A DNA stretch of 46,125 nt from NCBI RefSeq assembly GCF_965641715.1, contig NZ_OZ282456.1, one strand, 5' to 3'. This DNA comes from Escherichia coli (GTDB lineage: Bacteria > Pseudomonadota > Gammaproteobacteria > Enterobacterales > Enterobacteriaceae). The notes beneath the pieces are model-generated. The model made no database searches, had not been told where the DNA came from, and saw only the letters and a list, made by a program, of their open reading frames with translations. A program made the position numbers and the translations under genes. Of this stretch, positions 2,973 through 21,769 are shown in pieces; the first letter of the stretch is position 1, and each line of letters starts with the position of its first letter.

Positions 2973-3000
2973 AAGCCCCTGTTGCAAAGGGGCTTTTTTG
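2973..3000 (+). terminator. Rho-independent terminator
   Basis: Perfect 8-bp stem AAGCCCCT / AGGGGCTT with 7-nt loop followed by a T-run. Confidence 0.6.
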
Positions 3001-3003
3001 TGC

Positions 3004-3113
3004 TTATATAATTATAGATTTATATAAAAAGTGCTTTACAGGTGGGAAAAAATTTCCTATGGTTATACCCGAAACCGAGCGATACCCGCCCTGGTTAAAC
3101 CGGAGATAACCCG
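3004..3113 (+). promoter_or_regulatory. Copy A of a triplicated ~110-bp promoter-leader element (AT-rich box, -35 TTTACA at 3035-3040, 17-bp spacer, -10 TATGGT at 3058-3063, leader with GGAG)
   Basis: Near-identical to 12067-12175 and 16786-16895; each copy ends at an ATG. Confidence 0.55.
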
Positions 3114-3494
3114 ATGAGCATGATTAAAATCCGCAAAAACGCTTTCCTTAAAATTCAAACTATCCTGGCTGGTTCTGTTGGCGTGATTTGCCGTTCTTCC
3201 TCAAGCCGCATCGATGACTGCTACGATGATGAGTATCGTGTGTCCTCATGCGATGAGGCTTTAACCTGGCTGAAGGAGAATCAGGAACGTGCCCAGGTAT
3301 ATCTGGAAACAGAGAACGGCAATCAGATGCTGCGTATTAGCGGTCGTTATGGATTTGAAACTACATTCATGGCCTATTTTAATCAGGCTTACTTTGACAA
3401 GGAGTTGGCCTGGTACACTGATCGCATGAGCAAAAGCGAGCCAGCCCCGATTACACCGCCGAACAATAAACCATTTTTATTCCTCGTTAAGTAA
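3114..3494 (+). CDS. Hypothetical protein (driven by promoter-leader copy A)
   Basis: 126-aa ORF directly after the conserved leader and Shine-Dalgarno. Confidence 0.45.
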   Translation: MSMIKIRKNAFLKIQTILAGSVGVICRSSSSRIDDCYDDEYRVSSCDEALTWLKENQERAQVYLETENGNQMLRISGRYGFETTFMAYFNQAYFDKELAWYTDRMSKSEPAPITPPNNKPFLFLVK

Positions 3495-3557: not shown

Positions 3558-3830
3558 ATGACGGGTTATGAATTGAAATTATGGCGTCGTGGGATGAACT
3601 GGACGCAGGAGCGAGCCGCCGAAGAATTTGGGATATCGTTGGCTACATATAAGCGATATGAGAAGGGGGAGCCGCCGAGGGTCATTGAGATGGCCATTCG
3701 CGTTCTGTCGTTTGACGATATGGTGAAGGATCTTTCACACCTTGATAAAGATGCGATTCTGTTAAGGCTGCAAACCCTTGTATGGGAAAAGGTTAAAGTG
3801 TCGGCAGAATTGGAACAAGGGATCAAATGA
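3558..3830 (+). CDS. HTH (XRE-like) transcriptional regulator
   Basis: ATG at 3558 with GAGGAGGG upstream; HTH segment WTQERAAEEFGISLATYKRYEKGE; the track TTG start at 3525 lies inside the palindrome. Confidence 0.5.
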   Translation: MTGYELKLWRRGMNWTQERAAEEFGISLATYKRYEKGEPPRVIEMAIRVLSFDDMVKDLSHLDKDAILLRLQTLVWEKVKVSAELEQGIK

Positions 3831-4639: not shown

Positions 4640-5782
4640 TTATGGTCTGCTTTTCTGTGCCAGCTTATCAGCACATGTTTTTATCAGATCCTGTAGTGTC
4701 CTGGCTGGCAGGTTTGCATCCAGTACGCTGAGTATGCTGTTGTGATCTGCTTGGTCTACTACTTTGCCTGTCGGTGGTAGTAGCTTGAGCTGAGGATTCA
4801 GGTTTTCGTCAAAGCTGATAAGTGCTCTGGCGTTTCTGAGCAGATCAAGAAGTAAGGCTGATATCACATTTTCCTGAGTCATTGCTGGCAGATTTAGCGC
4901 CGCTTTGGTTTTCCCTGTTGCCTTGTCAAACTCCTTGATTAGTTCCTTCCTATAGTTCGGTTCCGTTAATAGCCGATTATGCTCTGTTGCCGCGCGGATA
5001 ATCGTTTTTTCCTGGTACAGTCGTTTAGCCAGATCGCGCTCGTACTGTGTTTTTAACACGCTGCTGATAGCGTTAAAGGCTTCAATGTAGGCTAGCTTGA
5101 TATCCTTCACGCCTGGACCGTCGATACTTTCCATGAGCAAGGTAAATCCGTCTTTTGTCATGCGATAGATTGTTATTTCGCGGTCGCTTCCTTCCAACGG
5201 TCGTTGCTCTTTAAAGAAATGACGCGCCGCAGCTGTGCGAGGAATGCGTAACGCATCGATGGCCATAACGATGGAATTGTTTGTGGTGCTGAATGCCTGG
5301 GCTACATCGGCTGAGGTTGTGAGTGGCTCGTTGTTGCACACCTTAACGTAATACATTGGTTTGGCGTTGAGCGTATCGACAACCTCACGAGCATTGTTTG
5401 GCGAGACGGTAACGGTCGCGGCCGTTTGCGCGTTCTGGTTGAAATAGCAGTCTTCCAGTTTTTCGAACACATCCCAAGCCTGATCGGTTTCGAGCATTTT
5501 GGCGTGACGGGCTGCTCCGTGTTCGGTCCAGAGAATTAGGGAGCGGGCATTTTTACCAACTAACCCGATTGTTTCAGGTCTGTTCTTGAACTCGCGTAAT
5601 TCGTTTTTTTCAATTTTAAAGTAATGCTTTCCGGCTATGAATCGCGTCGTGTTGTTCAGAAAGTTATCAGAAATGTTTTTGATTTTTGTTCCGTATAACT
5701 GCGCCAGAAGTTCAGTTGTAATAACGGGGATCTGGTTATGCAAGATAGGCTGTAGGGTGTTAACGGTCGGAAGCGTTTTCAT
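4640..5782 (-). CDS. Phage antirepressor (Ant-like)
   Basis: 380-aa ORF; N-terminal region with ILWTEHGAARHAKMLETDQAWDVFEKLEDCYF resembles antirepressor N-terminal domains and the C-terminal part resembles KilA-C-type domains, by recall. Confidence 0.55.
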   Translation of the reverse strand: MKTLPTVNTLQPILHNQIPVITTELLAQLYGTKIKNISDNFLNNTTRFIAGKHYFKIEKNELREFKNRPETIGLVGKNARSLILWTEHGAARHAKMLETDQAWDVFEKLEDCYFNQNAQTAATVTVSPNNAREVVDTLNAKPMYYVKVCNNEPLTTSADVAQAFSTTNNSIVMAIDALRIPRTAAARHFFKEQRPLEGSDREITIYRMTKDGFTLLMESIDGPGVKDIKLAYIEAFNAISSVLKTQYERDLAKRLYQEKTIIRAATEHNRLLTEPNYRKELIKEFDKATGKTKAALNLPAMTQENVISALLLDLLRNARALISFDENLNPQLKLLPPTGKVVDQADHNSILSVLDANLPARTLQDLIKTCADKLAQKSRP

Positions 5783-5970: not shown

Positions 5971-6130
5971 TGTGATATCTCCAATATATGGAACTATCAC
6001 CGCCATTCGAGGCTAATCAAATGGTGGTGAGCCGTACAGGGTTAGCCTTACCGGACACAATGACGAACCGGCGCGGATTTCTCCGCCCCTGTACGACCCA
6101 CCATAATTTGGGCGTAACAGTGCTCTACGC

Positions 6131-6157
6131 ATAAAAAAACCGCTAACGCGGTATGCG
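6131..6157 (-). terminator. Candidate intrinsic terminator (minus strand) in the antirepressor leader
   Basis: ACCGC-TAAC-GCGGT hairpin with a 7-A run on the plus strand (T7 on the minus strand). Confidence 0.35.
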
Positions 6158-6298
6158 CCATCGTGTTATTCAGGAGGCTAATCCCGACCGTAGATTTTGC
6201 TACGGCTCGGAAAGTGTCCACCAATGGCGCATTCATGTCAATACGGCGGGATTTTAACAGAGACAACCACATAGCGTGGGTTTATTGGTAGGCAGAAA

Positions 6299-6333: not shown

Positions 6334-6715
6334 GCTGATCGGATTCGCGGTCCTTTCAGCATAACGTCGTTGTGTAAACAACCACGCAAGCACAAGCGGC
6401 GTATCTATTCTTACTCAACTGAGGTGAATAGTCCACTATTCATATAAAGAAATTTAGTTCCTTAGTTCATGCAGAATGAAGTTTTTTAACTTCTTCGGAT
6501 GTAATTACATGTAATAAAAGCAATTGTTATTCCTTCATTATGAAGGCGAGGACGTGTAATATGGCTTGGGGCCTTTTCGCCGATTCGCACCCGGGCACCG
6601 ACTTTAAGGAAAGGATCATCCACTTGCCGTACACGCAAGCACAAGCGGAGTGCTTGCTCTCGCGTCATTTTCGTCGGTGGAGATGCCGTGAAACGGCCTG
6701 TAAGGGCCACACAAT

Positions 6716-6836
6716 GAAAAAATACTGTATGTGTATTTTTATCGTTGTTACTGGAGCTTTGTTTACGCCACATGGGGAGGGTTGGAAGATTACTGATAAC
6801 GCTCTGAATGTGACGATAAACATTAGCAGCAAGTAG
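6716..6836 (+). CDS. Candidate small hydrophobic peptide (40 aa)
   Basis: MKKYCMCIFIVVTGALFTPHGEGWKITDNALNVTINISSK; AAGGG upstream of the ATG; terminator immediately downstream. Confidence 0.2.
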
Positions 6837-6841
6837 CGATT

Positions 6842-6864
6842 AGGCCCCTTCGGGGGCCTTTTTT
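6842..6864 (+). terminator. Rho-independent terminator
   Basis: AGGCCCC-TTCG-GGGGCCT hairpin followed by TTTTTT. Confidence 0.55.
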
Positions 6865-7510: not shown

Positions 7511-7553
7511 GTGTATCCCCTCTTATATAAATCTATAAAACTATAATTATATA

Positions 7554-8207
7554 TTACGCGGCAGTAGTCAGAGCCTCAAGCTGGTTGATAATCCCCTGAA
7601 TAACGTCGTCTGCCTTTTTGCGTGGCGCAACGTATGAGCATTCAATGAGGCTTAAGCCCTTATCCTGAGCTTTGCTCAGAGCTGGCTTGTGGGGAATGTA
7701 CTTATCGACAACAAAGTATGGCGTATTAGCCAGGTACTCTTGGGCTTCAATATAGTCAGCTTCATTTTCAGCCGCGCCGGAAAACACCATGCAAATTTTC
7801 TTGATTGGCACACCCTTTTTAACGATGCCGTGAGCAGTGTTAACGGTGGTTTCCAGGTCATCGGTAGAGAATCGGGTTGGCAAAATAACCATATCCAGAA
7901 ATTCAGATAGCTTCGGTACTGATTCAGATGCGTAGGCACCGCCATCAACGATAACCAGGTCGTATACTTCTGATTCGATGATTTTCTGGACTTGTGATGG
8001 TGTGCCGCACGGCTGCGCCGCGATTGCTGGTTCGATATTGTTGGCCATTCTGCGTTGTACCCAACGCGTTACCGTTCCGTTAAGCACATCCATATCGATC
8101 AGGCATACATTCCAGCCAGCCTTTGCATAAGCAACTGCTAAAGCACGGGCAATTGTTGATTTGGTTACGCCGCCTTTTCCGTTGAAAATACCTACAGAGA
8201 TAGTCAT
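7554..8207 (-). CDS. parA: Partition ATPase ParA/ParF (Walker-type)
   Basis: Deviant Walker A GKGGVTKST near the N-terminus; ATG at 8207 has GGAG 9 nt upstream (track start 8222 lacks SD). Confidence 0.8.
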   Translation of the reverse strand: MTISVGIFNGKGGVTKSTIARALAVAYAKAGWNVCLIDMDVLNGTVTRWVQRRMANNIEPAIAAQPCGTPSQVQKIIESEVYDLVIVDGGAYASESVPKLSEFLDMVILPTRFSTDDLETTVNTAHGIVKKGVPIKKICMVFSGAAENEADYIEAQEYLANTPYFVVDKYIPHKPALSKAQDKGLSLIECSYVAPRKKADDVIQGIINQLEALTTAA

Positions 8208-8222
8208 TTGTCGAGACTCCAT

Positions 8223-8345
8223 GTGTTTGGTTATATAATTCTATAAATCTATATTTATAGAACGAGGTAAGCATAACCAACTTTTTGGCGGATGGAAAGC
8301 GTTTTATATAATTATATAAATCTATAATCATATAAGCGGGCGTTA
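8223..8345. repeat. AT-rich repeat array upstream of parA; candidate partition site/operator
   Basis: Two copies of TTATATAATT(C/A)TATAAATCTATA at 8231-8260 and 8304-8335. Confidence 0.4.
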
Positions 8346-8824: not shown

Positions 8825-9481
8825 TCATAACCAGTTGACAACACTAACTACGCGGCCCAGAACTTTATAACGCTTAAATTCCTCGTTATTCAGATGCTTA
8901 GTGTTCATTTCAGCATCCCTTTCGGTTGACAGCATAACAGCATTGTCACCCGGTATGACTCTACAGTGCCTCAAAACAACCAGGCCATTTCTGTCTTCAA
9001 GGGCATAGATCCCCTCATGAATCTCTGTATCGTCTGTATTAATCAGGACTTGGGAGCCAGGGGATATTGTTGGTGACATTAACTCATCGTTGCTCTGGAG
9101 AACTGACAGAGACGATGGGTTGATGTTCTTGCTTCGTAGAATCTCCTGTTCTATCGCCAGCACTGGCTTTTCTCCGGCGTGCGATGCTATGTCATTTTTT
9201 ATAGCTACAAGCCCAGGAATAACAGGAGCGTTAGTATTCTGGGGTGGGAACGGGTTATCTGTTAAGCACGCGATATAAGGCGCTGATGCTTTCAGGGCGT
9301 GCGCGATTTTCTTGATGGCAGGTATCGATGGTTGTCTTAATCCGGCCTCATAGTTCTGCAAGGTGCTTAAGCCTATTCCAGTGACTTGCTGGAGATCTCC
9401 GGCAGTCATGCCGGATTGTTTCCGTAGAGTCTGAATGCGCAGACCTATTTCTTTCTTGATGTTCTCGTCGTTGCTTTTCAT
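8825..9481 (-). CDS. CI-like prophage repressor (HTH XRE domain plus S24 LexA-like peptidase domain)
   Basis: N-terminal HTH (LRKQSGMTAGDLQQVTGIGLSTLQNYEAG); C-terminal domain with the layout of self-cleaving CI/LexA repressors. Confidence 0.8.
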   Translation of the reverse strand: MKSNDENIKKEIGLRIQTLRKQSGMTAGDLQQVTGIGLSTLQNYEAGLRQPSIPAIKKIAHALKASAPYIACLTDNPFPPQNTNAPVIPGLVAIKNDIASHAGEKPVLAIEQEILRSKNINPSSLSVLQSNDELMSPTISPGSQVLINTDDTEIHEGIYALEDRNGLVVLRHCRVIPGDNAVMLSTERDAEMNTKHLNNEEFKRYKVLGRVVSVVNWL

Positions 9482-9518
9482 GTCTCATCAATCGTGAATG
9501 GTGGGTTATTTATACATT

Positions 9519-9636
9519 ACCACATTTAGTGGTTTTCACATGGTAAGACGAGAGGTGGACCACAAATAGAAGGTTATTTTTTGTTTCGCCCATTGAAAAA
9601 CCCACGATATGTGGTTTTAATACCACATATCGTGGT
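9519..9636. promoter_or_regulatory. Divergent immunity control region with three operators: ACCACATTTAGTGGT (9519-9533), CCACGATATGTGG (9602-9614), ACCACATATCGTGGT (9622-9636)
   Basis: Three copies of the 5-bp inverted repeat ACCAC/GTGGT with 5-bp spacer, plus a half-site at 9558-9566, between divergent repressor and cro-like genes. Confidence 0.55.
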
Positions 9637-9655
9637 TTTAACTGGAGTTCGTTAA

Positions 9656-12006: not shown

Positions 12007-12066
12007 AAGTGTCATTTTGAGCTGTTTTGATGGTGTGTAGACATCGGGAACATCGAAAATCTATAA

Positions 12067-12175
12067 ATATATAATTATAGATTTATATAAAAAGTGCTTT
12101 ACAGGTGGGAAAAAATTTCCTAAGGTTATACCCGAAACCGAGCGATACCCGCCCTGGTTAAACCGGAGAAATCTG
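12067..12175 (+). promoter_or_regulatory. Copy B of the triplicated promoter-leader element
   Basis: About 97 percent identical to 3004-3113 and 16786-16895 over about 100 bp; one base shorter before the ATG. Confidence 0.55.
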
Positions 12176-13243
12176 ATGAATAAACAAGTAATTATTTCTG
12201 ACTGGATCAACAACCCTAACAGCCTGTTAAGCACTGATACTGGCTACCTATTACGCCATGTTAATGGTCGTATGGTCAAAAGCGATGAGCACGAAACCTT
12301 TTTCTTTGTTGAAGACGATGGGCGTATCTATGAGGATGGTTACTCTTATGAAGCCCAAACTGGTTGTATCCCTGCGGAGCTGGTGGACGTAACAGAAGAT
12401 CTGCGCAAAGCATGGCTTGAACAGCAGCAGCGCGGAGATGATTACGTAAACACCTATCAGGAACGCCAGAACGCGCGTCTTGCCCGATATATTGCTCGTG
12501 CAGAAAAAGCCAGAAAAGAAGGTGCGGTAGCGCATAAGCGAGCGCATGACCTGTTGGATGTGATCCCGTTAGGCCAGCCGATTTTAGTTGACCATTATAG
12601 CGCGAAAGGCCATCGCCGCCGTTTGTCTAAAGCTGATGCGTTATTCAGAAAAGCGTTTGTTGAATGCGAAAGTAAAGCATCACACTACGAGAGCAAAGCC
12701 GCAGGTGTTGGTCGTAATGGAATTTCGTCTGATGATCCTGATGCGCTATTTAAGTTGCTTCGTAAGCTGCAAGGCTGCATGAAGTCACACGTCAAAATGA
12801 AGGCCGCAAATAAGGCCATTCGCAAATACAAAAAAGACCAATTACAGCAGCTTTCTGCATTAATCGATCTCAGGTTTACAGAAAGCGAAGCCAAAGAGTT
12901 ACTGGCCGGAGATTTCTGTGGGCACATCGGATTCCCTTCATACGCACTGAGCAACAATAAGGCCGAAATCAAACGACTACAGAGCCGTATTAAGGAGCTT
13001 GAATCGGTCAAGTCTGTAACAGGAGCACAGCGCGAAGAATACGACGGCTTTTCTATGGAGATAGATCCAGAGGATAACCGCATCCTGTTTTATTTCCCTG
13101 GCAAACCAGAGGCAAACATTCGTTCGCTGCTTAAATCACGCGCCTTTAAGTGGAGTCCAACCCGTAATGCATGGGTTCGCAAGATTACTCCAAACGCCCT
13201 GGCTGATGCCCGATATCTGAAAGAATCGCTATTGAAAGCCTGA
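12176..13243 (+). CDS. DUF3560-family protein
   Basis: Segments GQPILVDHYSAKGHRRRLSKADA, ISSDDPDALFKL and MKAANKAIRKYKK match DUF3560 as recalled. Confidence 0.5.
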   Translation: MNKQVIISDWINNPNSLLSTDTGYLLRHVNGRMVKSDEHETFFFVEDDGRIYEDGYSYEAQTGCIPAELVDVTEDLRKAWLEQQQRGDDYVNTYQERQNARLARYIARAEKARKEGAVAHKRAHDLLDVIPLGQPILVDHYSAKGHRRRLSKADALFRKAFVECESKASHYESKAAGVGRNGISSDDPDALFKLLRKLQGCMKSHVKMKAANKAIRKYKKDQLQQLSALIDLRFTESEAKELLAGDFCGHIGFPSYALSNNKAEIKRLQSRIKELESVKSVTGAQREEYDGFSMEIDPEDNRILFYFPGKPEANIRSLLKSRAFKWSPTRNAWVRKITPNALADARYLKESLLKA

Positions 13244-13320
13244 CAGTAAGCCTACGGCGGGATATCTCCCGCCGTATATAGAATTATATATTTATATAAA
13301 TGTATAAGGACGCCTCGACA

Positions 13321-13602
13321 ATGAAACGCAAAATTATTAACCCCCAAGATGTGATTAATTTCCTGACCGATCACCCATGTTCAAAAGTGGACGTAATCGC
13401 GGAGCACATTGGTGTGTCGCAGAACTCTATGCGTTGCAGACTGAGAAGCATGGTTGCCGAAGGACAGATAACAACCAGGAAAATAAATGGTTGCCTGTAC
13501 TACTCCGCTAAACCGGAATTGCCATTTGGCATGAATCCTAACTCCATGTTGTTTAACACCTTATTAGCCAAAGTTAAGCCGTTGAGAGGGGCTGTGGCAT
13601 GA
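13321..13602 (+). CDS. Hypothetical protein (possible winged-helix DNA-binding)
   Basis: Track frame 13300-13602; the 13300 start lies inside an AT-rich motif, ATG at 13321 preferred. Confidence 0.35.
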   Translation: MKRKIINPQDVINFLTDHPCSKVDVIAEHIGVSQNSMRCRLRSMVAEGQITTRKINGCLYYSAKPELPFGMNPNSMLFNTLLAKVKPLRGAVA

Positions 13603-13992
13603 GCATCAAAACCCATACCGGAATAATCATTACCAATGATGGTGAGAAAAGAGTGAAGTTGCGCGAAACGCCGACAACCTGGTGTGTTGGTCCGAAAGAA
13701 ACATAATGAAGCACATACAACCGAAAACATGGCAGAAACTGGACTCTATGGGCGTTAAGTTGGAGAAGATTACTCAACTTAAGCAGTGGCATATCGGCGA
13801 ATATTATGGAAGTCCTGGTCGGGATGTTCGGTTGGTCAAAAGTTAAGTATTGTTTTTTTATTGATCGATTAACCACAATATGAAGGTTTTTTTATGGGAA
13901 AACCTTGTTTTAGGTGGTAACTGGGTGTAGTGTTTCATTTAACGTAGTAAAACTGCGTTAAGCGATTACCGCGTAATTTGTTGCTTTATGAA

Positions 13993-14023
13993 GCCCTGCC
14001 TTTTCGGCGGGGCTTTTTTTTTT
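13993..14023 (+). terminator. Strong Rho-independent terminator immediately upstream of the lysis cassette
   Basis: 8-bp stem GCCCTGCC/GGCGGGGC (one G-U), loop TTTTC, followed by a 10-T run; holin ATG 14 bp downstream. Confidence 0.65.
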
Positions 14024-14036
14024 AACGAGGATTTCA

Positions 14037-14432
14037 ATGTCAGCAGAACCAATTTCCGGTACGGCCGTTGCTGCTGGTGGCCTGATGGGTGCCAGCGTTT
14101 TTGGTATTGCAACTGGTATTGATTACGGCGTTGTATTCGGGGCATTTGCTGGCGCTGTTTTCTATGTTGCTACAGCGGTGAATATTAGCCGTCTCAAGCT
14201 GATTGGCTATTTCTTTACATCGTTCATTGTTGGAGTGATTGGAGCGCCGTTAGTTGGCTCATTTCTTGCCAAATGGACCAGCTACAACGATCGTCCTCTG
14301 GATGCGCTTGGTGCGGTTATTGTGGCTGCATTGACCATTAAAATCCTCACGTTCGTAAACAGCCAGGATCTCGGTAGCATCTTTGGAATGCTTTCCCGCT
14401 TACGTGGAGGGGGTTCAAATGGTAAGCAGTGA
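14037..14432 (+). CDS. Holin-like membrane protein
   Basis: 131 aa with several hydrophobic segments; first gene of the lysis cassette. Confidence 0.45.
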   Translation: MSAEPISGTAVAAGGLMGASVFGIATGIDYGVVFGAFAGAVFYVATAVNISRLKLIGYFFTSFIVGVIGAPLVGSFLAKWTSYNDRPLDALGAVIVAALTIKILTFVNSQDLGSIFGMLSRLRGGGSNGKQ

Positions 14433-14715
14433 CCCGTCAGCACTGATTAATGCGGTGCTTTGCACAGTAATAGTAATGGCGCTGATGCTTTATCGACGGA
14501 AAGACTCCAGGCATCGTCCATTTGTTTCCTTTCTGGCTTATATCTACGTCATTGTATACGCCAATGTTCCCTTCCGTTATGTGTTCGGTCTTTATCAAGA
14601 ATCCCACTGGCTGGTGGTTATTGGAAATCTGATTATCTGCATCGTTGTTCTGTATTTCAGGGGCAATCTGGCGCGGATAGTTGACGCATTAGGGTTTAAT
14701 CATGACCAAAGATGA
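14419..14715 (+). CDS. Second membrane protein of the lysis cassette (holin/antiholin-like)
   Basis: ATG at 14419 with GGAGG 8 nt upstream; about three predicted transmembrane segments; track frame 14383-14715. Confidence 0.4.
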   Translation: MVSSDPSALINAVLCTVIVMALMLYRRKDSRHRPFVSFLAYIYVIVYANVPFRYVFGLYQESHWLVVIGNLIICIVVLYFRGNLARIVDALGFNHDQR

Positions 14716-15244
14716 GATTTTTAACAGTGTTCTTGGAAAAGAGGGCGGCTATGTGGATCACCCTGACGACAAGGGAGGCCCAACAAAGTGGGGCATTACT
14801 CAGAACACTGCCCGTGCTCATGGATACCGTGGCGATATGCGCGATTTAACTCGCGAACAGGCTCTGGAAATCCTTGAGGCTGATTACTGGTACGGCCCAC
14901 GTTTTGACCAGATAGCAACTCTGTCGCCGGATATTGCCGCAGAACTGTGCGACACGGGCGTCAACATGGGGCCAACAGTGGCGTCAAAAATGCTTCAACG
15001 CTGGCTGAATGTGTTCAACCTGCGTGGGAAGCTGTATCCCGATTTGGATGCAGACGGACGAATCGGTCCACGTACCATTAATGCGCTGCGTGCTTATCTT
15101 GGGAATCGGGGAAAAGACGGCGAACGGGTGATGCTGACGTCGCTGAACTGTACGCAGGGCGAACGCTATCTGGAGTTGGCGGAGAAGCGCGAGGCTAATG
15201 AGTCGTTTGTCTACGGCTGGATGAAAGAGCGAGTGGTGGTATGA
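14702..15244 (+). CDS. Endolysin (GH108-type N-terminal domain with peptidoglycan-binding C-terminal domain)
   Basis: N-terminal signature GKEGGYVDHPDDKGGPTKWGIT typical of GH108 lysozymes. Confidence 0.75.
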   Translation: MTKDEIFNSVLGKEGGYVDHPDDKGGPTKWGITQNTARAHGYRGDMRDLTREQALEILEADYWYGPRFDQIATLSPDIAAELCDTGVNMGPTVASKMLQRWLNVFNLRGKLYPDLDADGRIGPRTINALRAYLGNRGKDGERVMLTSLNCTQGERYLELAEKREANESFVYGWMKERVVV

Positions 15245-15519
15245 CTGGTTTGAAGGCCGTTTTGTCATTTATTGGCACAATTATATTGGTTGCATTTGGC
15301 GCGTTTGGTTTTGGTCGTATGAAGGGGCGAGAAAAGGCCGAAGATGAAGCTGAAAAGCAGCGCATTAATGAGAATGCAGCCGCCGTAAAAGCCACTGCGG
15401 AGCGGCGTATAGAAGTGACAAAAGAGGTGGGGAATGTACAGCAGAGTGTTAACCATATGGCTGATGACGATGTTGATCGCGAGCTGCGGGAGTCGTGGAA
15501 GCGTCCCGGTGGTGGTTGA
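15241..15519 (+). CDS. i-spanin (Rz-like)
   Basis: N-terminal transmembrane helix then charged coiled-coil region; follows the endolysin with overlapping start. Confidence 0.5.
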   Translation: MTGLKAVLSFIGTIILVAFGAFGFGRMKGREKAEDEAEKQRINENAAAVKATAERRIEVTKEVGNVQQSVNHMADDDVDRELRESWKRPGGG

Positions 15520-15643
15520 TACCGCCTGTGATTGGGTAAAGCCCATCTACCTGACTGATCACGACATCGATGTTATGGACCGACAGACAAAGAAAGATAT
15601 TCTGGCTCATAACAGGGCATGGGAAATCAACTGTCCAAAGTAA
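15434..15643 (+). CDS. o-spanin (Rz1-like lipoprotein) overlapping the i-spanin in another frame
   Basis: Lipobox-like LIASC within the signal sequence; overlapped Rz/Rz1-type arrangement. Confidence 0.5.
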   Translation: MYSRVLTIWLMTMLIASCGSRGSVPVVVDTACDWVKPIYLTDHDIDVMDRQTKKDILAHNRAWEINCPK

Positions 15644-15720
15644 TATATATTTCTATAATTATATAAATATATAGTTACAACATTCTATGCGCTTTTCTCA
15701 TGGGCGCACGCATCAACCAT

Positions 15721-15803
15721 GTTTGTCTGATATGCCGCCGCGCCCAAAAATCCTGAATTTATTGGCTGGGATTTTCGTGCGCGGCGCCACACCAGACAAA
15801 CAA
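15721..15803. other. Long multi-tier inverted repeat upstream of the tRNA
   Basis: Outer arms GTTTGTCTG/CAGACAAAC, middle arms GCCGCGC/GCGCGGC, inner arms AAAATCC/GGATTTT. Confidence 0.35.
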
Positions 15804-15812
15804 ATCAAATAT

Positions 15813-15888
15813 GGCCCCTTAGCTCAGTGGTTAGAGCAGGCGACTCATAATCGCACGGTCATCGGTTCAAATCCGGTAGGGGCCACCA
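15813..15888 (+). tRNA. tRNA with CAT anticodon (Met by anticodon; sequence resembles the lysidine-type tRNA-Ile2)
   Basis: Manual cloverleaf: 7-bp acceptor stem GGCCCCT/AGGGGCC, D-arm GCTC-AGTGGTTA-GAGC, anticodon loop CTCATAA, T-loop GGTTCAAATCC, 3' CCA encoded. Confidence 0.8.
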
Positions 15889-16195
15889 ATTCACTCTCAC
15901 ACATAAAGATAAGCGCGGTGGAGTTACTTCTTCGTGCTCATCTTTATGCGTGCCTGGTGCGCATTTCGGGCGAACGTGGGGCTAAGTTACAGGCAGGGCC
16001 TGTTATCCGCAAAGGGGTAAAAGCTGGAGCGGCACGGAACTGTAGCCGTGTTACCAAAACAGCGTTGTCGGGCGATATCCGGCACACAACAGGCAAGGGC
16101 ATTAATCAGTCTGGTTAGTGCCCTTTTCGTTGTGTTTGCTGTAGAGCTGGCCAGCGTTATGACTGCCGGAGATAAGCGCCGGAGGCACAATTAAC

Positions 16196-16783
16196 ATGGA
16201 GGCAATTGCATTGTTTAATCTGATTTATGCAGATCCCCCCTGGGAATACAAAGACAAGTGTAAGGATGGGAATCGTGGAGCTGGTTTTAAGTATCCAACG
16301 ATGAAAGCTGAGGAGATTGCTCGTATTCCTGTCTGGCAGCTTGCTAATCCTGAATCGTGTTTGTTGGCCATGTGGTGGGTTCCGACTCAGCCAGAAGAAG
16401 CGTTGCTGGTGGTTAAAGCATGGGGATTCAGGCTGATGACCATGAAGGGCTTCACATGGAACAAATGTGGTAGCCGACAACCAGATAAGCTGGTGATGGG
16501 GATGGGGCATATGACTCGTGCAAACAGTGAAGATTGCTTGTTTGCGGTAAAAGGCAAACTGCCGACCCGTCTTGATGCGGGGATCATTCAGTCGTTTACA
16601 TCGCCTCGTCTGGAGCATTCTCGGAAGCCTGATGTGGTCCGTGACAAGCTGGTAAAGCTGTTAGGTGATGTTCCTCGTATTGAGCTGTTTGCTCGCGGTG
16701 ATTTACCTGATGGCTGGCATGGCTGGGGCAACCAGTGCAATGGAGGTATCCAGTTGCATGATGCTCTCTGGCAAGTGGCATAG
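16196..16783 (+). CDS. MT-A70-family DNA N6-adenine methyltransferase
   Basis: Catalytic DPPW motif near the N-terminus (IYADPPWEY), size about 195 aa. Confidence 0.75.
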   Translation: MEAIALFNLIYADPPWEYKDKCKDGNRGAGFKYPTMKAEEIARIPVWQLANPESCLLAMWWVPTQPEEALLVVKAWGFRLMTMKGFTWNKCGSRQPDKLVMGMGHMTRANSEDCLFAVKGKLPTRLDAGIIQSFTSPRLEHSRKPDVVRDKLVKLLGDVPRIELFARGDLPDGWHGWGNQCNGGIQLHDALWQVA

Positions 16784-16785
16784 AA

Positions 16786-16895
16786 TTATATAATTATAGA
16801 TTTATATAAAAAGTGCTTTACAGGTGGGAAAAAATTTCCTAAGGTTATACCCGAAACCGAGCGATACCCGCCCTGGTTAAACCGGAGATAACCCG
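16786..16895 (+). promoter_or_regulatory. Copy C of the triplicated promoter-leader element
   Basis: Near-identical to copies A and B; ends at the ATG of 16896. Confidence 0.55.
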
Positions 16896-17165
16896 ATGAA
16901 AGTACAAGACCGTGAAGTAGTAAAAAACCTCCTGCAATACCTGACCTCAAAAAACCTGACGGGCAGCGTTGAGTTCCGTGAAGCGTTAAAACATTTCAAC
17001 GTCACTACGGTTTATCGTTGGGAAAACGAACATTCTGAAAGACCGTATGTGGTGGATGTTTTTGCGCCTGATATTGAGTGCGGTTTTGAGCGTCATTCGT
17101 TCAAGGAGAAACATTCCGCTGATGTTTTTTGTGAGGTTGTATGTGCGGCAGGAGATGATGAGTGA
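16896..17165 (+). CDS. Hypothetical protein (driven by promoter-leader copy C)
   Basis: 89-aa ORF directly after the conserved leader. Confidence 0.4.
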   Translation: MKVQDREVVKNLLQYLTSKNLTGSVEFREALKHFNVTTVYRWENEHSERPYVVDVFAPDIECGFERHSFKEKHSADVFCEVVCAAGDDE

Positions 17166-17362
17166 TGCGTATTTCCTTCAAACGTGCGACTGAGCAGCAA
17201 CGCAAAGAGTTCCTGGCTGATGATGTAGCGGCCGTTTATGACCTCATGAAAGAGGTTGTGGAATCAGGGAACTACACGGCGGCAAAGATGCTTAAACTGC
17301 AATTCTTGCTGGGCGACCTGAAATACAAATCCGAAGTTGTCGCCGGACGACGCGAGCATTAA
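17162..17362 (+). CDS. Hypothetical protein
   Basis: 66-aa ORF with overlapping start (ATGA) to the upstream gene. Confidence 0.35.
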   Translation: MMRISFKRATEQQRKEFLADDVAAVYDLMKEVVESGNYTAAKMLKLQFLLGDLKYKSEVVAGRREH

Positions 17363-17384
17363 ACCGTAACGATAACGAACAACG

Positions 17385-17411
17385 AGCCTCGGCAATTGCC
17401 GGGGCTTTTTT
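17385..17411 (+). terminator. Rho-independent terminator
   Basis: AGCCTCGG-CAATTG-CCGGGGCT hairpin followed by TTTTTT. Confidence 0.5.
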
Positions 17412-17436
17412 ACATCCAGACAAAGGAGAACATGGG

Positions 17437-17892
17437 ATGCCTTCGACAAGCACCAAAAAAGAAATGGCGATTAGTGATGTGCTGTACGCGCTTTCGATTA
17501 TGTGTGACGGAGCAATGATGAGGATGAAAGTCCTCCATGAAGCATACGGAAAAAGTCACGACGAGGCAGCCAAAGAGTGCCTGAATGAGATTGTGGACTT
17601 CATTGATAGCCATCGGTCGCTGATAGCTCTCGATAACCAGCCTCAAGCCGAAGAATGCCAGAAGCGCGAGTATAAAACGATATATGGGAATAAGTTCTCC
17701 TGTCTAAGCGAGTTGGCTGCAAAGGTGGCCGACATTCTGGAGAACAACGGCGGTCGAATGCGTCAGGTTAGCTATCAGTCTGAATATGAAGCTCTAATCA
17801 TGTTAGTTGATCAGTTAGTTGATACCGGAGCTTTACAGCTCAACTGCGTAAGGCTATCTGGTCATCCGATAAAAATGAATGGAAGGATATAA
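17437..17892 (+). CDS. Hypothetical protein
   Basis: 151-aa ORF; no recognisable family. Confidence 0.4.
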   Translation: MPSTSTKKEMAISDVLYALSIMCDGAMMRMKVLHEAYGKSHDEAAKECLNEIVDFIDSHRSLIALDNQPQAEECQKREYKTIYGNKFSCLSELAAKVADILENNGGRMRQVSYQSEYEALIMLVDQLVDTGALQLNCVRLSGHPIKMNGRI

Positions 17893-17894
17893 CC

Positions 17895-18101
17895 GTGGAC
17901 TTGCCGAGTGATTTGTTCTGGTTTCCGCTTCCAATAAGAGATTTGTTGGTATTTCTGGCTGGCGCTTACGTCTGGAGAAAAGCGAAAGACACCTCGTTAT
18001 CTTTGAGGTTTGTCTTAGCTATATCGGTAGGAACCGCGCTGGGGACGGCGTATCTCTTGACATTACTGGAGATATTCATTGAAGAATGGATAGTTTCATG
18101 A
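17895..18101 (+). CDS. Small membrane protein
   Basis: 68 aa with two hydrophobic segments. Confidence 0.35.
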   Translation: MDLPSDLFWFPLPIRDLLVFLAGAYVWRKAKDTSLSLRFVLAISVGTALGTAYLLTLLEIFIEEWIVS

Positions 18102-18250
18102 ATGGTGTTGGCATTTTTCTGATGGTTGTGGCCGTGTGTTTTTGTATCTCGCTGGTGGTTATTGCTGGTGTCCTGTGGCGCATCTTAGTGGCGCAGAGAG
18201 CTTTTCGGCGTAAGCGGGAGCAATTATTGATTGATAAATTTAGGCAGTAA
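18098..18250 (+). CDS. Small membrane protein (50 aa, below the track cut-off)
   Basis: ATG at 18098 overlaps the upstream stop (ATGA); MNGVGIFLMVVAVCFCISLVVIAGVLWRILVAQRAFRRKREQLLIDKFRQ. Confidence 0.25.
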   Translation: MNGVGIFLMVVAVCFCISLVVIAGVLWRILVAQRAFRRKREQLLIDKFRQ

Positions 18251-18336
18251 TTGGTCGATTAAAATGAGGCATAAATAAAACAATGTGTCTTTTTTAAAGG
18301 TTGTGTAACATTTGCGTTCCATTTAAGGAGGGTAAA

Positions 18337-18744
18337 ATGCGCACCGATCTAGATTATCTAAAAAAGATGCTGACTGTGTTTTTGGATTCAGAAAGCACGT
18401 TCATAACAGTAAATCAACTAAGAGATGCGGGGTTTGATATAGCCTCAGAAAAGGGCATGTTTCATTATATGCAATTGATTGAGCAAGGTTTTATCAGCAA
18501 TATGAAGATGGAAACGCGTGATCCTCTGCGTCTTGGCTATGTTAATTCCTTTGCAGGAATGAGGACTGTTGATGTAGATATTAGATTGACTACAGAGGGA
18601 CAGGATTTTGCCTGTGCACTAGAGAGCAAAGATGTTTTCGCTAGACTAAAAGAAATTAGCAATGAGCCATTGGCTGTTATGAAGGATGTTGGTGTAGAAC
18701 TTCTCAAGTCATTGGCAAAGAAGAAGTTTGGTTTATCTGATTAG
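18337..18744 (+). CDS. Hypothetical protein
   Basis: ATG at 18337 preceded by AAGGAGGG; track frame 18301-18744. Confidence 0.4.
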   Translation: MRTDLDYLKKMLTVFLDSESTFITVNQLRDAGFDIASEKGMFHYMQLIEQGFISNMKMETRDPLRLGYVNSFAGMRTVDVDIRLTTEGQDFACALESKDVFARLKEISNEPLAVMKDVGVELLKSLAKKKFGLSD

Positions 18745-18772
18745 TGCAGATACCTGTTTGCTATTTATTTAT

Positions 18773-18802
18773 AAAACCACCTGCGGGTGGTTTTGTTTTT
18801 TT
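18773..18802 (+). terminator. Rho-independent terminator
   Basis: AAAACCACC-TGCG-GGTGGTTTT hairpin followed by a T-run. Confidence 0.55.
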
Positions 18803-19036
18803 AGCATTACAGCAGCTCTTGTGCTTACCAGGGGCTGCGATAATGCGCAAACCAAAGCTGCCTCATTAACTCCAGCTCGCTGTAGAGTTAATGCTGGTTG
18901 CTTTTTTATTACTGGAAGGTGGGCGACCGCCGTCAGTTGCGACCTGACGACAGTCATTCATACCCACAGGGTGCCGTGGATACAAACCGAGGCCCACTTG
19001 CTTGCACAAGCGAGGGGATTTTAGCGGATAAACGGC

Positions 19037-19660
19037 ATGACAAAACATCTTAATGTGGTTTCTTTACCACTTTCTGTGTTGATTGGTTATGAAAAGAACG
19101 CTCGCACACACTCCGTGGAGCAGGTAGATCAGATTGTTGCCAGCATACAGGAGTACGGATGGACTAATCCGATCCTGATAGACGAGAACAACGTTGTAAT
19201 TGCTGGTCATGGTCGAATTGCTGCGGCCACTCAGTTGGGGATGGATGATGTTCCCTGCATTGTTCTGGAAGGGCTAACGGAGAATCAGAAGAAGGCATAT
19301 CGTCTGGCCGACAACCGTATTCCGCTGAATGCTGGTTGGGATGAAGAGCTGTTAAGCGCGGAGCTTGCAGATCTTGCGGCCGATGATTTTGCTCTGGACT
19401 CAATTGGTTTTACTCAGCGCGAACTGGATAACTTATTGAGTGCGGCAGTCTACGATGACACAGAGGGTATGGATATCCCATTTGAGAAGGATGAGGCCAA
19501 ATCAGGCGTAAAAGTTCAGTACCTGTCATTTGGAGGTCATAAAATCCCGGCAACGGATGAGGAAGCGGATCGTTTTGACTGCGCGGTGTCTCGTTATGTT
19601 GATGATAATGGCAGCTATATCGGATTTGTATCCGCATTGCTGGCTGGGGAGGTGTGCTGA
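19037..19660 (+). CDS. ParB N-terminal (ParB/Srx-like nuclease) domain protein
   Basis: Motifs YEKNARTHS and VIAGHGR typical of ParB-like domains found in phages; paralogous to 22327-22917. Confidence 0.6.
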   Translation: MTKHLNVVSLPLSVLIGYEKNARTHSVEQVDQIVASIQEYGWTNPILIDENNVVIAGHGRIAAATQLGMDDVPCIVLEGLTENQKKAYRLADNRIPLNAGWDEELLSAELADLAADDFALDSIGFTQRELDNLLSAAVYDDTEGMDIPFEKDEAKSGVKVQYLSFGGHKIPATDEEADRFDCAVSRYVDDNGSYIGFVSALLAGEVC

Positions 19661-21049: not shown

Positions 21050-21769
21050 GTGGCTGACAGAATTGAGATAAAGATGGATTTTTCTTCTCAGGATATTCAA
21101 CGACAACTCCAGCGCCTTGAAGAACGCGAATTGCCGTTCGCAATGGCGCTTGCGGCAACCAGAACGGCAAAGGCTTCTCAGGCTGCGATTAAGAATGAAA
21201 TTAATCGGGTATTTGACAGGCCCACGCCGTGGATTCAGAACTCTACTTACGTTTTGGCCGCAAAGAAGAGTGATCCTACAGCCATTGTGTATGCTCGTGA
21301 ATGGGGAGGAACGCCAGCCCCTGTAACGTTGACTCCGCAAATCGAAGGTGGCCAACGACAGTACAAACGCTCAGAAGGGGCGCTAAGGGCTGGTGGATAT
21401 TTGCCTAACGGCTGGCAGCTTGCTCCTGGTCCCGGCGCAAAGCTGGACAAATACGGGAATATTTCGCGGGGGCAATTACAGCAGGTCTTATCTGGCCTAA
21501 GAGTTCAGCGAGATGCGCATCAAAATCGCCGTCAGGGCAAGCCTACGGAGTTTTTTGTTGTTCGACCTGGTACAAGTAACCCGCTTCAACCAGGCGTCTG
21601 GCAGCGCGTTGGGCGGCGTCCTACGTTGATCCTTACGTTTATCCAGCAACCTAACTATTCGCAGCGTCTTGATTGGCATGGCGTGGCGCTGCGTGCTGGT
21701 GAGGATGCGTTTGCTGATGAAGTCACAAAGGCTATTGATGACATTCTTTCTAAGACCTTCTCTCGTTAA
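21050..21769 (+). CDS. Hypothetical protein
   Basis: 239-aa ORF between the ParB-like genes; no recognisable family. Confidence 0.4.
   Translation: MADRIEIKMDFSSQDIQRQLQRLEERELPFAMALAATRTAKASQAAIKNEINRVFDRPTPWIQNSTYVLAAKKSDPTAIVYAREWGGTPAPVTLTPQIEGGQRQYKRSEGALRAGGYLPNGWQLAPGPGAKLDKYGNISRGQLQQVLSGLRVQRDAHQNRRQGKPTEFFVVRPGTSNPLQPGVWQRVGRRPTLILTFIQQPNYSQRLDWHGVALRAGEDAFADEVTKAIDDILSKTFSR

Follow-up and report, generated by a model that had tools for sequence, protein, structure and literature searches.

A block of six small genes, A to F, in a phage-plasmid of Escherichia coli consists of an inherited string of genes followed by an imported one. Sequence comparisons show that genes A to E are old, lineage-specific, fast-evolving genes that were inherited vertically with the backbone of the element and are not imported cargo. 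Gene F is the only clearly imported gene of the block, and it comes from lambda-like prophages. The explanation proposed here adds to this history an early or middle regulon in which the block would be expressed, and a complex of the products of C, D and E at the cell envelope. Taken as a whole, this explanation is modestly probable. The architecture and evolutionary history of the block are well supported, and its biochemical function is a guess. A block of this kind is unsurprising, as phages as a rule carry small early or accessory genes that are not understood. Almost no non-structural gene of the present phage-plasmid family has a known role, and the analysis provides a map that separates the inherited A-E from the imported F. 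The map also adds gene D, which every annotation examined had missed (no GenBank or RefSeq record examined has a CDS at its position).

The DNA analysed (the window, 46,125 nucleotides) is the whole of the E. coli phage-plasmid pRHB38-C13_5 (CP055628.1), an element of the 46-49-kb, myovirus type. Related plasmids are present in 75 of 5426 complete E. coli genomes (~1.4%), including the reference strain ATCC 25922. The same family is also found as the Yersinia phages vB_YpM_39, 41 and 44, and it yields plaque-forming phages on Yersinia pestis. The phage-plasmids pSLy3 and pTZ20_1P and those of ETEC are members of the SSU5 or P1 groups and not of this family. A literature search gave no match for DUF2513/PF10711, the vB_YpM phages or the present plasmid family.

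Gene content and transcription signals

The sequence-only reading spoke of five genes in its title and listed six open reading frames. Six are real, all on the + strand and at the places it gave (89, 65/66, 151, 68, 50 and 135 aa in the ORF listing; Table 1). The promoter upstream of the block, which it called copy C, is likewise real and is one of three copies of a cassette. Copy C has a 50-nt leader with a GGAG Shine-Dalgarno sequence, and this leader runs to the ATG of gene A. One of the other copies heads a primase-like/DUF3560 gene and a MarR-like regulator, and the remaining one heads an unknown gene and an HTH regulator. The cassette is retained in a divergent relative, L029. Copy A reaches 9/12 in a sigma-70 promoter score, and a sigma-70 consensus scan of the + strand from 15500 to 19500 returned no site. 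Because a near-identical promoter-operator cassette also drives the primase-like operon and the regulator operon, the promoter with its spacer palindrome would place the block in one co-regulated, de-repressible early or middle regulon. The block is probably not a constitutive lysogenic-conversion unit, a timing read only from the identity of the promoter. The palindromes of the CI-like repressor region of the element differ from the GGAAA-N3-TTTCC operator, for which the HTH protein at 3558-3830 and the MarR-like protein at 13321-13602 are candidate regulators.

Table 1. Position and properties of the block genes and their signals in the window
Feature	Position	Strand	Remarks
Cassette copies (three)	3004-3117, 12067-12180, 16786-16899		114 nt each
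Promoter/operator/leader cassette, copy C of three	16786..16899	+	91-100% identity across copies
Copy C -35, TTTACA	16817-16822	+	
Putative operator, palindrome GGAAA-N3-TTTCC	16827-16839		inside 17-nt spacer; in all three copies
Copy C -10, TAAGGT	16840-16845	+	
Gene A	16896..17165	+	89 aa; acidic, pI 5.15; soluble; phrog_6143, unknown function
Gene B	17165..17362	+	GTG 17162 gives 66 aa, PGAP ATG 17165 gives 65 aa; phrog_6621
Intrinsic terminator after B	17384..17413 (hairpin 17384-17407)	+	10 pairs, 7 GC, T6
Gene C	17437..17892	+	151 aa; soluble; four helices by prediction
Gene D	17895..18101	+	68 aa; GTG start; AAGGA Shine-Dalgarno
Gene E	18086/18098-18250	+	54 or 50 aa (50 from 18098); start overlaps D stop (ATGA)
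F moron cassette	18226..18802	+	577 bp; 37.5% GC vs 46% for A-E
Gene F	18337..18744 (alternative start 18301)	+	135 or 147 aa; acidic, pI 5.2
F-cassette terminator	18771-18796	+	11 pairs, T7

Both terminators that had been proposed as flanks were recovered, and their hairpins are the strongest of six terminator-like sites between 15500 and 19500 (3.9 +/- 1.9 in shuffles). Only 30 nt without a promoter-like site separate the terminator after B from gene C, so C-D-E-F are probably transcribed only by read-through, and this terminator probably holds the membrane proteins at a low level. The downstream terminator does not bound the block as a whole: it lies inside the imported F cassette and is missing in relatives with the ancestral gene at that position.

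Downstream of the block, at 18803-19040, lies a structured RNA leader that is supported by covariation and has no Rfam match. A 16-mer scan of IMG/VR for this leader elsewhere returned family members and chance matches only. It may be more interesting than the block itself, inside which Rfam recognized no family.

Gene A is acidic and gene B basic (pI 9.05, helical by prediction), and the two are translationally coupled, the start of B overlapping the stop of A (TGATG). Gene A is the minimal form of a family that spans 79 to 255 aa, comprises about 30 homologue clusters and shares the N-terminal motif QDRxVVKxLLQYMTxKxLTGSxEFxxALKHFNITT. The gene context of its homologues was seen for a minority only, and the contigs with long forms were too short to inform. 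An apparent A-B fusion in long A homologues was dismissed as an alignment extension into unrelated helical sequence. Homologues of B (33-71% identity) occur in every examined relative with sequence covering the position. Among close relatives, the A+B pair alternates with a fused 73-aa form or with a diverged pair.

Genes C, D and E are translationally coupled as well. C is modular, with a conserved N-terminal helical hairpin of about 61 aa followed by a 'YGxKFSxLSxLA...LVDxGxLxLN' domain. Its ancestors were longer (201-323 aa), with a variable insert and a beta-tail, 'ITIxAPxVTI', in addition, and C is a shortened version of them. Another allele, of 99 aa, has the N-domain and the tail only. 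A simple deletion or frameshift does not account for this allele: its C-terminal segment consists of unrelated DNA, which matches the tail found in the long ancestral forms. The AlphaFold2 (AF2) model of C, with a pLDDT of 54 from an 11-sequence alignment, cannot be relied on. D has two predicted TM segments, its two hydrophobic stretches enclosing a basic loop, RKAKD. It carries the conserved motif LLVFLAGAYVW(R/K)K and, in TM2, a small-xxx-small pattern; its homologues are 67-72 aa long and 41-43% identical. E has one N-terminal TM segment and a predicted basic cytoplasmic tail (RILVAQRAFRRKREQ...; pI 11.3), and its homologues are 28-44% identical. The last 8 or so codons of E lie inside the imported F cassette. 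That D and E are membrane proteins, as first read from the sequence, agrees with their Kyte-Doolittle 19-residue maxima of 1.90 and 3.13, compared with at most 1.4 for A, B, C and F. The ATGA overlap also stands (TGA 18099-18101, ATG 18098-18100), and an overlap between D and E is kept in relatives, at 13 and 28 nt.

Inheritance, loss and selection in genes A to E

The inherited character of A-E is evident from comparison with relatives whose ParB is about 80% identical. The order MT-A70-A-B-C-D-E-slot4-ParB, slot 4 being the position now held by F, is kept in these relatives, at only 33-48% identity for C, D and E. A different account would regard the whole block as a hotspot of horizontally acquired accessory genes, swapped as cargo for superinfection exclusion, anti-defence or host modulation. 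It draws on the mosaic state of the locus among close relatives, which differ in the form of A+B, in a C of 151 or 99 aa and in slot 4, for which three alternative contents occur. It also draws on the genuine moron F and on the DNA methyltransferases that flank the block, which have a plausible anti-restriction role. Such an account is unlikely, since the order of A-E is unchanged at that ParB distance and these genes diverge in step with the backbone or faster. In addition, the GC content of A-E (46%) equals that of the backbone, and no significant PADLOC match was found. A concatenated phmmer search against 1.84 billion representatives located D and E only in the present lineage. The matches of C were restricted to the lineage except for a repetitive 437-aa protein, P0076 (E 1e-5, context unseen). 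A word-indexed protein search with a concatenated A+B+D+E query gave two odd matches only, one of them a frameshifted read-through. The description of the locus as an accessory block therefore holds in part: its genes are small, uncharacterised and not universally required, and F is a moron, but A-E are not acquired cargo.

Losses are documented for several block genes. A is deleted in four relatives (L002, which is the plaque-forming phage vB_YpM_41, and L006, L011 and L024). In 15 Escherichia-group relatives, all genes present have open frames, except E in L002 and a D::slot-4 fusion in L026, in which E is lost. Fifteen of the 16 Escherichia-group loci carry a full-length D and 14 an intact E. 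L029 is without D and yet keeps E, so D and E are not strictly co-dependent. C-D-E are absent altogether from Salmonella pAR-0407-1. Two plaque-forming Yersinia phages, vB_YpM_41 and 44, are among the relatives with losses or disruptions. These natural variants without A, D, E or C-D-E show that the block genes are not universally required.

The strength of selection differs along the locus. MT-A70 has a pN/pS ratio of 0.04 and ParB one of 0.19; the ratio is 0.28 for A, 0.23 for B and 0.24 for the N-domain of C, and reaches 0.99 for the C-domain of C, 0.49 for D and 0.62 for E. The value near 1 in the C-domain of C could reflect decay rather than function. Extended to all three genes, this becomes the proposal that C, D and E are decaying, functionless remnants of a larger gene set, in relatives that are too young to have lost the open frames. 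The high ratios, the occurrence of natural knock-outs and the loss of different parts of the ancestral protein in the 151-aa C of the window and in the 99-aa allele are in line with it. The proposal is nonetheless distinctly unlikely. The near-complete retention of intact D and E in the Escherichia group argues against it, as do the length, TM pattern, motifs and overlap of D and E, which are kept at 28-48% identity with synonymous sites saturated. Moreover, both C alleles supply a start codon for D, either GTG with a Shine-Dalgarno sequence or ATG.

Gene F and its cassette

The F cassette comprises an AT-rich upstream region, an AAGGAGG Shine-Dalgarno sequence, gene F and its own terminator. 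It took the place of the ancestral slot-4 gene (S4alt, phrog_1935). In prophages of Citrobacter, Pantoea and E. coli, homologues of F follow the Rz gene at a distance of about 60-85 nt, and a terminator comes after each of them. The AT-rich stretch GTTGTGTAAnATTTG upstream of F recurs in the Pantoea prophage copies. Of the 75 E. coli genomes, only five are matched over at least 80% of the query, and each of these five records is listed with a DUF2513 annotation; among the matches listed (60 of 64 matching plasmid records), this annotation is found in 7 of the 60.

Structural modelling indicates that F is a DUF2513-type winged-helix protein. Its AF2 model (pLDDT 93.7) has a winged helix-turn-helix fold, and a Foldseek search of AFDB50 retrieved dozens of DUF2513 proteins (E 1e-19 to 1e-5, TM 0.7-0.97 over about 135 residues). 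A search of viral structures (BFVD) with the fold gave nothing significant. The Pfam DUF2513 model (PF10711) matches weakly, at E 0.0037 and 18 bits over model positions 3-96 of 100, and DUF2513 is also the RefSeq (PGAP) name of F. F has a conserved C-terminal amphipathic helix. It is probably a small winged-helix binding protein, with DNA binding uncertain in view of the acidity of the protein and the few basic residues (one Lys, one His) of the putative recognition helix, KGMFHYMQLIEQ. A DUF2513 winged-helix gene thus moves between the lambdoid post-lysis moron site and a phage-plasmid, and this movement makes a widespread DUF family a tractable target.

The DUF2513 membership of F qualifies the earlier statement that none of the six proteins has a recognisable family. 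PHROG families, none of them of known function, are also matched by five of the six. Searches of PADLOC, PHROGs, NCBIfam, Pfam and PDB sequences found no match of known function for any of the six proteins, and the family searches revealed no homology to structural or replication proteins. In PADLOC-DB 2.0, only C gave a match, to PtuB, and this was not significant (E 0.013, 13 bits); the other five proteins gave nothing. Sequence and profile searches of the PDB with F, C and the A and B families were without a significant match, and Pfam returned TM-driven noise for D and E. As no protein belongs to a family of known function or fits a PADLOC model, the function of the block stays inferred.

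Candidate functions and known systems

C, D and E probably form a small inner-membrane complex that acts on the cell envelope, and the likeliest role of such a complex would be the exclusion of incoming phage DNA. A more specific version is speculative, and we consider it rather doubtful: C-D-E would be an undescribed three-component membrane-associated system for exclusion or abortive infection against competing phages, or against host defence, with the C hairpin and its inserts of 0 to about 170 aa as a 'sensor/adaptor'. If this were true, an arms race and not decay would have left its mark in the pN/pS values of 0.5-1.0, in the domain swaps between alleles and in the repeated losses. C-D-E are a coupled module for which natural knock-outs already exist.

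The membrane proteins could alternatively serve lysis timing. D resembles class II holins or pinholins in its 68 aa, 2 TM segments and small-xxx-small pattern, E resembles single-TM antiholins, and both are downstream of, and on the same strand as, a holin-holin-GH108 endolysin-spanin cassette at 14037-15643, 2.4 kb upstream. A holin/antiholin or pinholin-like function is nevertheless very unlikely. This lysis cassette already contains two holin-family genes and is complete, and searches of Pfam, PHROGs and NCBIfam gave no holin family for either protein. Between the two sets of genes are a tRNA gene, two terminators, a methyltransferase gene and a separate promoter. The endolysin gene is in another transcription unit. 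The disruption of E in plaque-forming vB_YpM_41 and the lack of C-D-E in the Salmonella element also weigh against it.

The transcriptional arrangement of the block can be compared with that of P1, in which many copies of one operator control scattered early operons. Here, three promoter-operator-leader cassettes head three dispersed operons, and the phage-plasmid carries a P1-type C4 antisense RNA immunity region. The GGAAA-N3-TTTCC palindrome is, however, unrelated to the C1 operators of P1.

The F cassette corresponds closely to the morons known from lambdoid phages, such as lambda bor and HK97 gp15, which are single genes inserted between the lysis and head genes together with transcription signals of their own. 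It is a single gene of deviating GC content with a strong Shine-Dalgarno sequence and a terminator of its own. Only a minority of relatives have it, in place of another gene at the same slot, and its homologues occupy the classical post-Rz moron site. It differs in that no promoter was recognised for F and in that it resides in a myovirus-type phage-plasmid instead of a lambdoid prophage. The F protein departs from the MarR, PadR, HxlR and TubR winged-helix regulators in its acidity, in a recognition helix without the usual basic residues and in its extra C-terminal helix.

Small inner-membrane exclusion proteins are known from several phages, including Imm and Sp of T4, SieA and SieB of P22, gp15 of HK97 and Sim of P1. 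D and E have no sequence or structural similarity to these proteins, and they differ in being coupled to the modular soluble C and in being transcribed, probably, through terminator read-through. They are like them in that both are very small phage-encoded membrane proteins located outside the lysis and structural modules, and in that E, at least, is dispensable for plaque formation.

The six-gene block and its unannotated membrane gene

Six small genes, here called A to F, make up the block behind promoter copy C. The sequence-only reading described the block correctly, and the feature is real. Every ORF that it listed is present on the + strand, although its title counted five genes and the real number is six. 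The 68-aa and 50-aa ORFs (genes D and E) do overlap by ATGA, D's TGA and E's ATG sharing bases, and their description as membrane proteins holds, as both have hydrophobic segments, unlike A, B, C and F. The two terminators that it named are the strongest hairpin sites of the region, and promoter copy C is indeed one of three such cassettes. The block is of an ordinary kind, consisting of lineage-specific small early or accessory phage genes and one moron, a phage gene with its own transcription signals. Three useful specifics emerge: a conserved membrane gene has escaped annotation, C, D and E form a coupled module of which natural knock-outs exist, and a DUF2513 gene is mobile.

Features of the block and related elements in the window (genes A to F from the ORF listing)
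Feature	Position	Strand	Remarks
Gene A	16896-17165	+	89 aa, soluble
Gene B	17162/17165-17362	+	66/65 aa, soluble
Gene C	17437-17892	+	151 aa, soluble
Gene D	17895-18101	+	68 aa, GTG start
Gene E	18098-18250	+	50 aa
Gene F	18337-18744	+	135 aa, soluble
Promoter/operator/leader cassettes	3004-3117, 12067-12180, 16786-16899	+	three near-identical 114-nt copies
AT-rich repeat sites	2996-3027, 7523-7554, 8231-8335, 12051-12090, 13276-13307, 15643-15682, 16778-16809		repeat family D1
Structured RNA-like leader	18803-19040	+	conserved; conservation and covariation
C4 antisense RNA	6020-6108	-	Rfam, above gathering score
isrK	6133-6206	-	Rfam, above gathering score
ryfA	6567-6864	+	Rfam, above gathering score

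Gene D is a real gene, though the GenBank and RefSeq records examined all lack a CDS between C and E. Its reading frame is uninterrupted in the window and likewise in 14 of 15 Escherichia-group relatives, the exception (locus L026) being a fusion of D to the gene in slot 4, the position after E. A Shine-Dalgarno sequence, AAGGA, lies 7 nt upstream of the GTG, and the start is ATG in plasmids carrying an alternative allele of C. The protein has a basic loop flanked by two hydrophobic stretches. Homologues found by a full-sensitivity search (67-72 aa, 41-43% identity) retain the two-TM layout and conserve the motif LL(V/M)(F/I)LA(G/A)AYVW(R/K/Q)K and a C-terminal WI. The E protein has a single very hydrophobic segment followed by a basic tail. 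C is a modular protein. In ancestral forms (201-323 aa), a helical hairpin at the N-terminus is followed by a variable insert, then by a 'YGxKFSxLSxLA...LVDxGxLxLN' domain, and the tail, 'ITIxAPxVTI', is beta-prone; the window allele (151 aa) is without the tail, and the alternative allele (99 aa) is without the middle domain. An AF2 model of C reached a pLDDT of just 54 and cannot be relied on.

Ancestry of genes A to E and the origin of gene F

The window corresponds to the complete plasmid pRHB38-C13_5 (CP055628.1; 46,125 bp) of a pig-farm E. coli, reverse-complemented and rotated. It is a phage-plasmid, with plasmid functions (RepA, ParA and a RelE/ParE-XRE pair), immunity genes (a CI-like repressor, and a P1-type C4 antisense RNA adjoining an ORF6N antirepressor), lysis genes (two holins, a GH108 endolysin and a spanin) and virion genes (a lambda-like head and a P2/Mu-like contractile tail with an invertible fibre segment). 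Close relatives are present in 75 of 5426 complete E. coli genomes, including ATCC 25922, nearly always as 46-52-kb plasmids. E. fergusonii, E. albertii and Klebsiella aerogenes also harbour close relatives, and the plaque-forming Yersinia phages vB_YpM_39, vB_YpM_41 and vB_YpM_44 are close relatives as well. A literature search found no paper on this phage-plasmid family.

Relatives were gathered from plasmids, metagenome assemblies and IMG/VR with ParB as a neutral anchor. The order MT-A70-A-B-C-D-E-slot 4-ParB is retained in elements with just 79-81% ParB identity, in which protein identity to the window is 45-71% for A, 33-71% for B, 22-35% for C, 41-43% for D and 28-44% for E. All these divergent relatives have the D/E start-stop overlap (4, 13 or 28 nt), and C and D abut or overlap in them too. 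Matches to D and E among 1.84 billion representative proteins are confined to the phage-plasmid lineage, as are those to C except for one repetitive 437-aa protein, P0076, whose genomic context is unexamined. The A family comprises about 30 clusters of 79-255 aa with the N-terminal 90 residues in common. The conserved order, low identities and lineage-restricted matches show that A to E are old lineage-specific genes evolving much faster than the backbone, and they are not cargo. The view that the block consists of acquired accessory genes is thus contradicted for A to E by the retained order and is correct for F.

The block genes are not universally required. A deletion creating a 73-aa A'-B fusion occurs in several plasmids and in vB_YpM_41, in which E is also disrupted; E is lost by a D::slot-4 fusion in one IMG/VR contig, D is missing from the divergent relative L029, and Salmonella pAR-0407-1 is without C-D-E. 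In the Escherichia group, pN/pS is 0.04 for MT-A70, 0.19 for ParB, 0.23-0.28 for A, B and the C N-domain, 0.49 for D, 0.62 for E and 0.99 for the C C-terminal domain, from small counts with a consistent contrast between genes. This contrast fits either relaxed constraint or diversifying selection.

Sequence comparison indicates that F, a DUF2513-type winged-helix protein, is the sole imported gene of the block. One replacement junction falls at 18226, among the final ~8 codons of E, and the other at 18802/18803. The 577-bp insert between them is 37.5% GC, compared with 46% in A to E, and carries its own AAGGAGG ribosome-binding site and terminator (18771-18796); the displaced ancestral gene S4alt (phrog_1935; 87-136 aa, 47% GC) lacks its own terminator. 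F is found in just a minority of the family. Its homologues (49-81% identity) come from Citrobacter, Pantoea, E. coli, Pectobacterium, Serratia and Edwardsiella, and each one fetched is a lone gene 60-85 nt past Rz/spanin, ahead of a lambdoid prophage terminase and followed by its own terminator, which is the classical moron site. DNA binding by F is not assured, given the acidity of the protein and the scarcity of basic residues in its putative recognition helix. The literature search found no mention of DUF2513 (PF10711). In some relatives, slot 4 (L004 3083-3793 and L002 4334-5047) holds a 237-aa ORF in which a tail-fibre-assembly-like N-terminal segment is fused to the phrog_1935 protein; PGAP annotates it as a pseudogene plus a hypothetical protein.

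Possible roles of the proteins

No block protein has a homologue of known function in PHROGs, PADLOC, NCBIfam, Pfam or PDB sequences. Given the tight translational coupling, the membrane topology, and the fast evolution with dispensability, our best guess, a tentative one, is that C, D and E come together in a small complex at the inner membrane and act on the envelope, most likely to exclude incoming DNA. A role in lysis timing is unlikely, since the block genes form a unit separate from an already complete lysis cassette, match no holin model, and include an E that is broken in a plaque-forming phage (vB_YpM_41). Decay into remnants is possible for C and less so for D and E, which are deeply conserved.

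Regulatory signals and the immunity region

Each cassette consists of an AT-rich upstream stretch, a -35 TTTACA, a 17-nt spacer, a -10 TAAGGT or TATGGT, a conserved 50-nt leader and an ATG. The palindrome GGAAA-N3-TTTCC lies in all three spacers, with a fourth copy at 1448-1460. It is a candidate operator, since L029 keeps the cassette and the palindrome arms with a changed 3-nt centre. The three cassettes serve different operons: copy B heads a DUF3560/primase-like gene and a MarR-like regulator, and the remaining copy an unknown gene and an HTH regulator. The block therefore probably belongs to a co-regulated regulon, which would be de-repressible and early or middle. A and B sit between the promoter and a good terminator; C-D-E-F, with just 30 nt from terminator to C, would be accessible by read-through alone, and read-through past the B terminator would keep membrane-protein levels low.

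An AT-rich 'TATAAATCTATAA'-type repeat has ten intergenic copies, three of them immediately upstream of the cassettes, and could be a regulator-binding site, an IHF site or a UP-like element. The MarR-like gene (phrog_1687; 13321-13602, +) is last in its operon and is followed, immediately ahead of the holin genes, by a very strong terminator (13990-14016, +; 11-bp stem, T9). The two could provide a late-gene activator or an antitermination checkpoint.

The 234-nt 'spacer' from the F terminator to the ParB/Srx start keeps 87% identity across relatives in which the neighbouring proteins stand at 33-48%. RNAalifold predicts 73 pairs in 8 helices, 12 pairs having compensatory double changes. In this structure 96% of cells pair, against 33-47% with partners slid, and the covariation score of 0.226 (0.04-0.10 when slid) was reached by 0 of 500 shuffles. 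Many G-U pairs point to a + strand RNA. Helix 2 (18854-18904) with its U-tract resembles an intrinsic terminator, and in predicted helix 6, 18971-18976 pairs with 19033-19038, which would sequester the ParB AUG by taking in its first two bases. The leader has no Rfam match, is confined to the phage-plasmid lineage in IMG/VR, and has the F insertion point as its exact 5' edge. It probably regulates the ParB-methyltransferase-terminase gene string, through attenuation or at the level of translation, and merits separate study. Further on, a 239-aa protein (21050-21769, +) between the ParB-methyltransferase gene and a second ParB/Srx gene has conflicting annotations: PHROG 'minor tail protein' and, for a Salmonella relative's homologue, family-1 glycosyltransferase. 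A tRNA gene at 15813-15888 (+; anticodon CAT), flanked by lysis genes and the MT-A70 methyltransferase gene, is tRNA-Met by ARAGORN and lysidine-type tRNA-Ile by PGAP in relatives.

The palindromes of the CI-like repressor region are unlike those of the cassettes. In the gap that separates the repressor gene (8825-9481, -) from the first rightward gene (9656, +), positions 9500-9640 hold CCAC-N5/6-GTGG-type palindromes: CCACATTTAGTGG and a 14-bp perfect hairpin, CCACGATATGTGG...CCACATATCGTGG. These are likely the main immunity operators, distinct from the cassette operator. Upstream of the ORF6N antirepressor-like gene (4640-5782, -) is the C4/isrK pair, an arrangement that resembles the ImmI immunity region of P1/P7 type, here in a phage-plasmid that is not P1.
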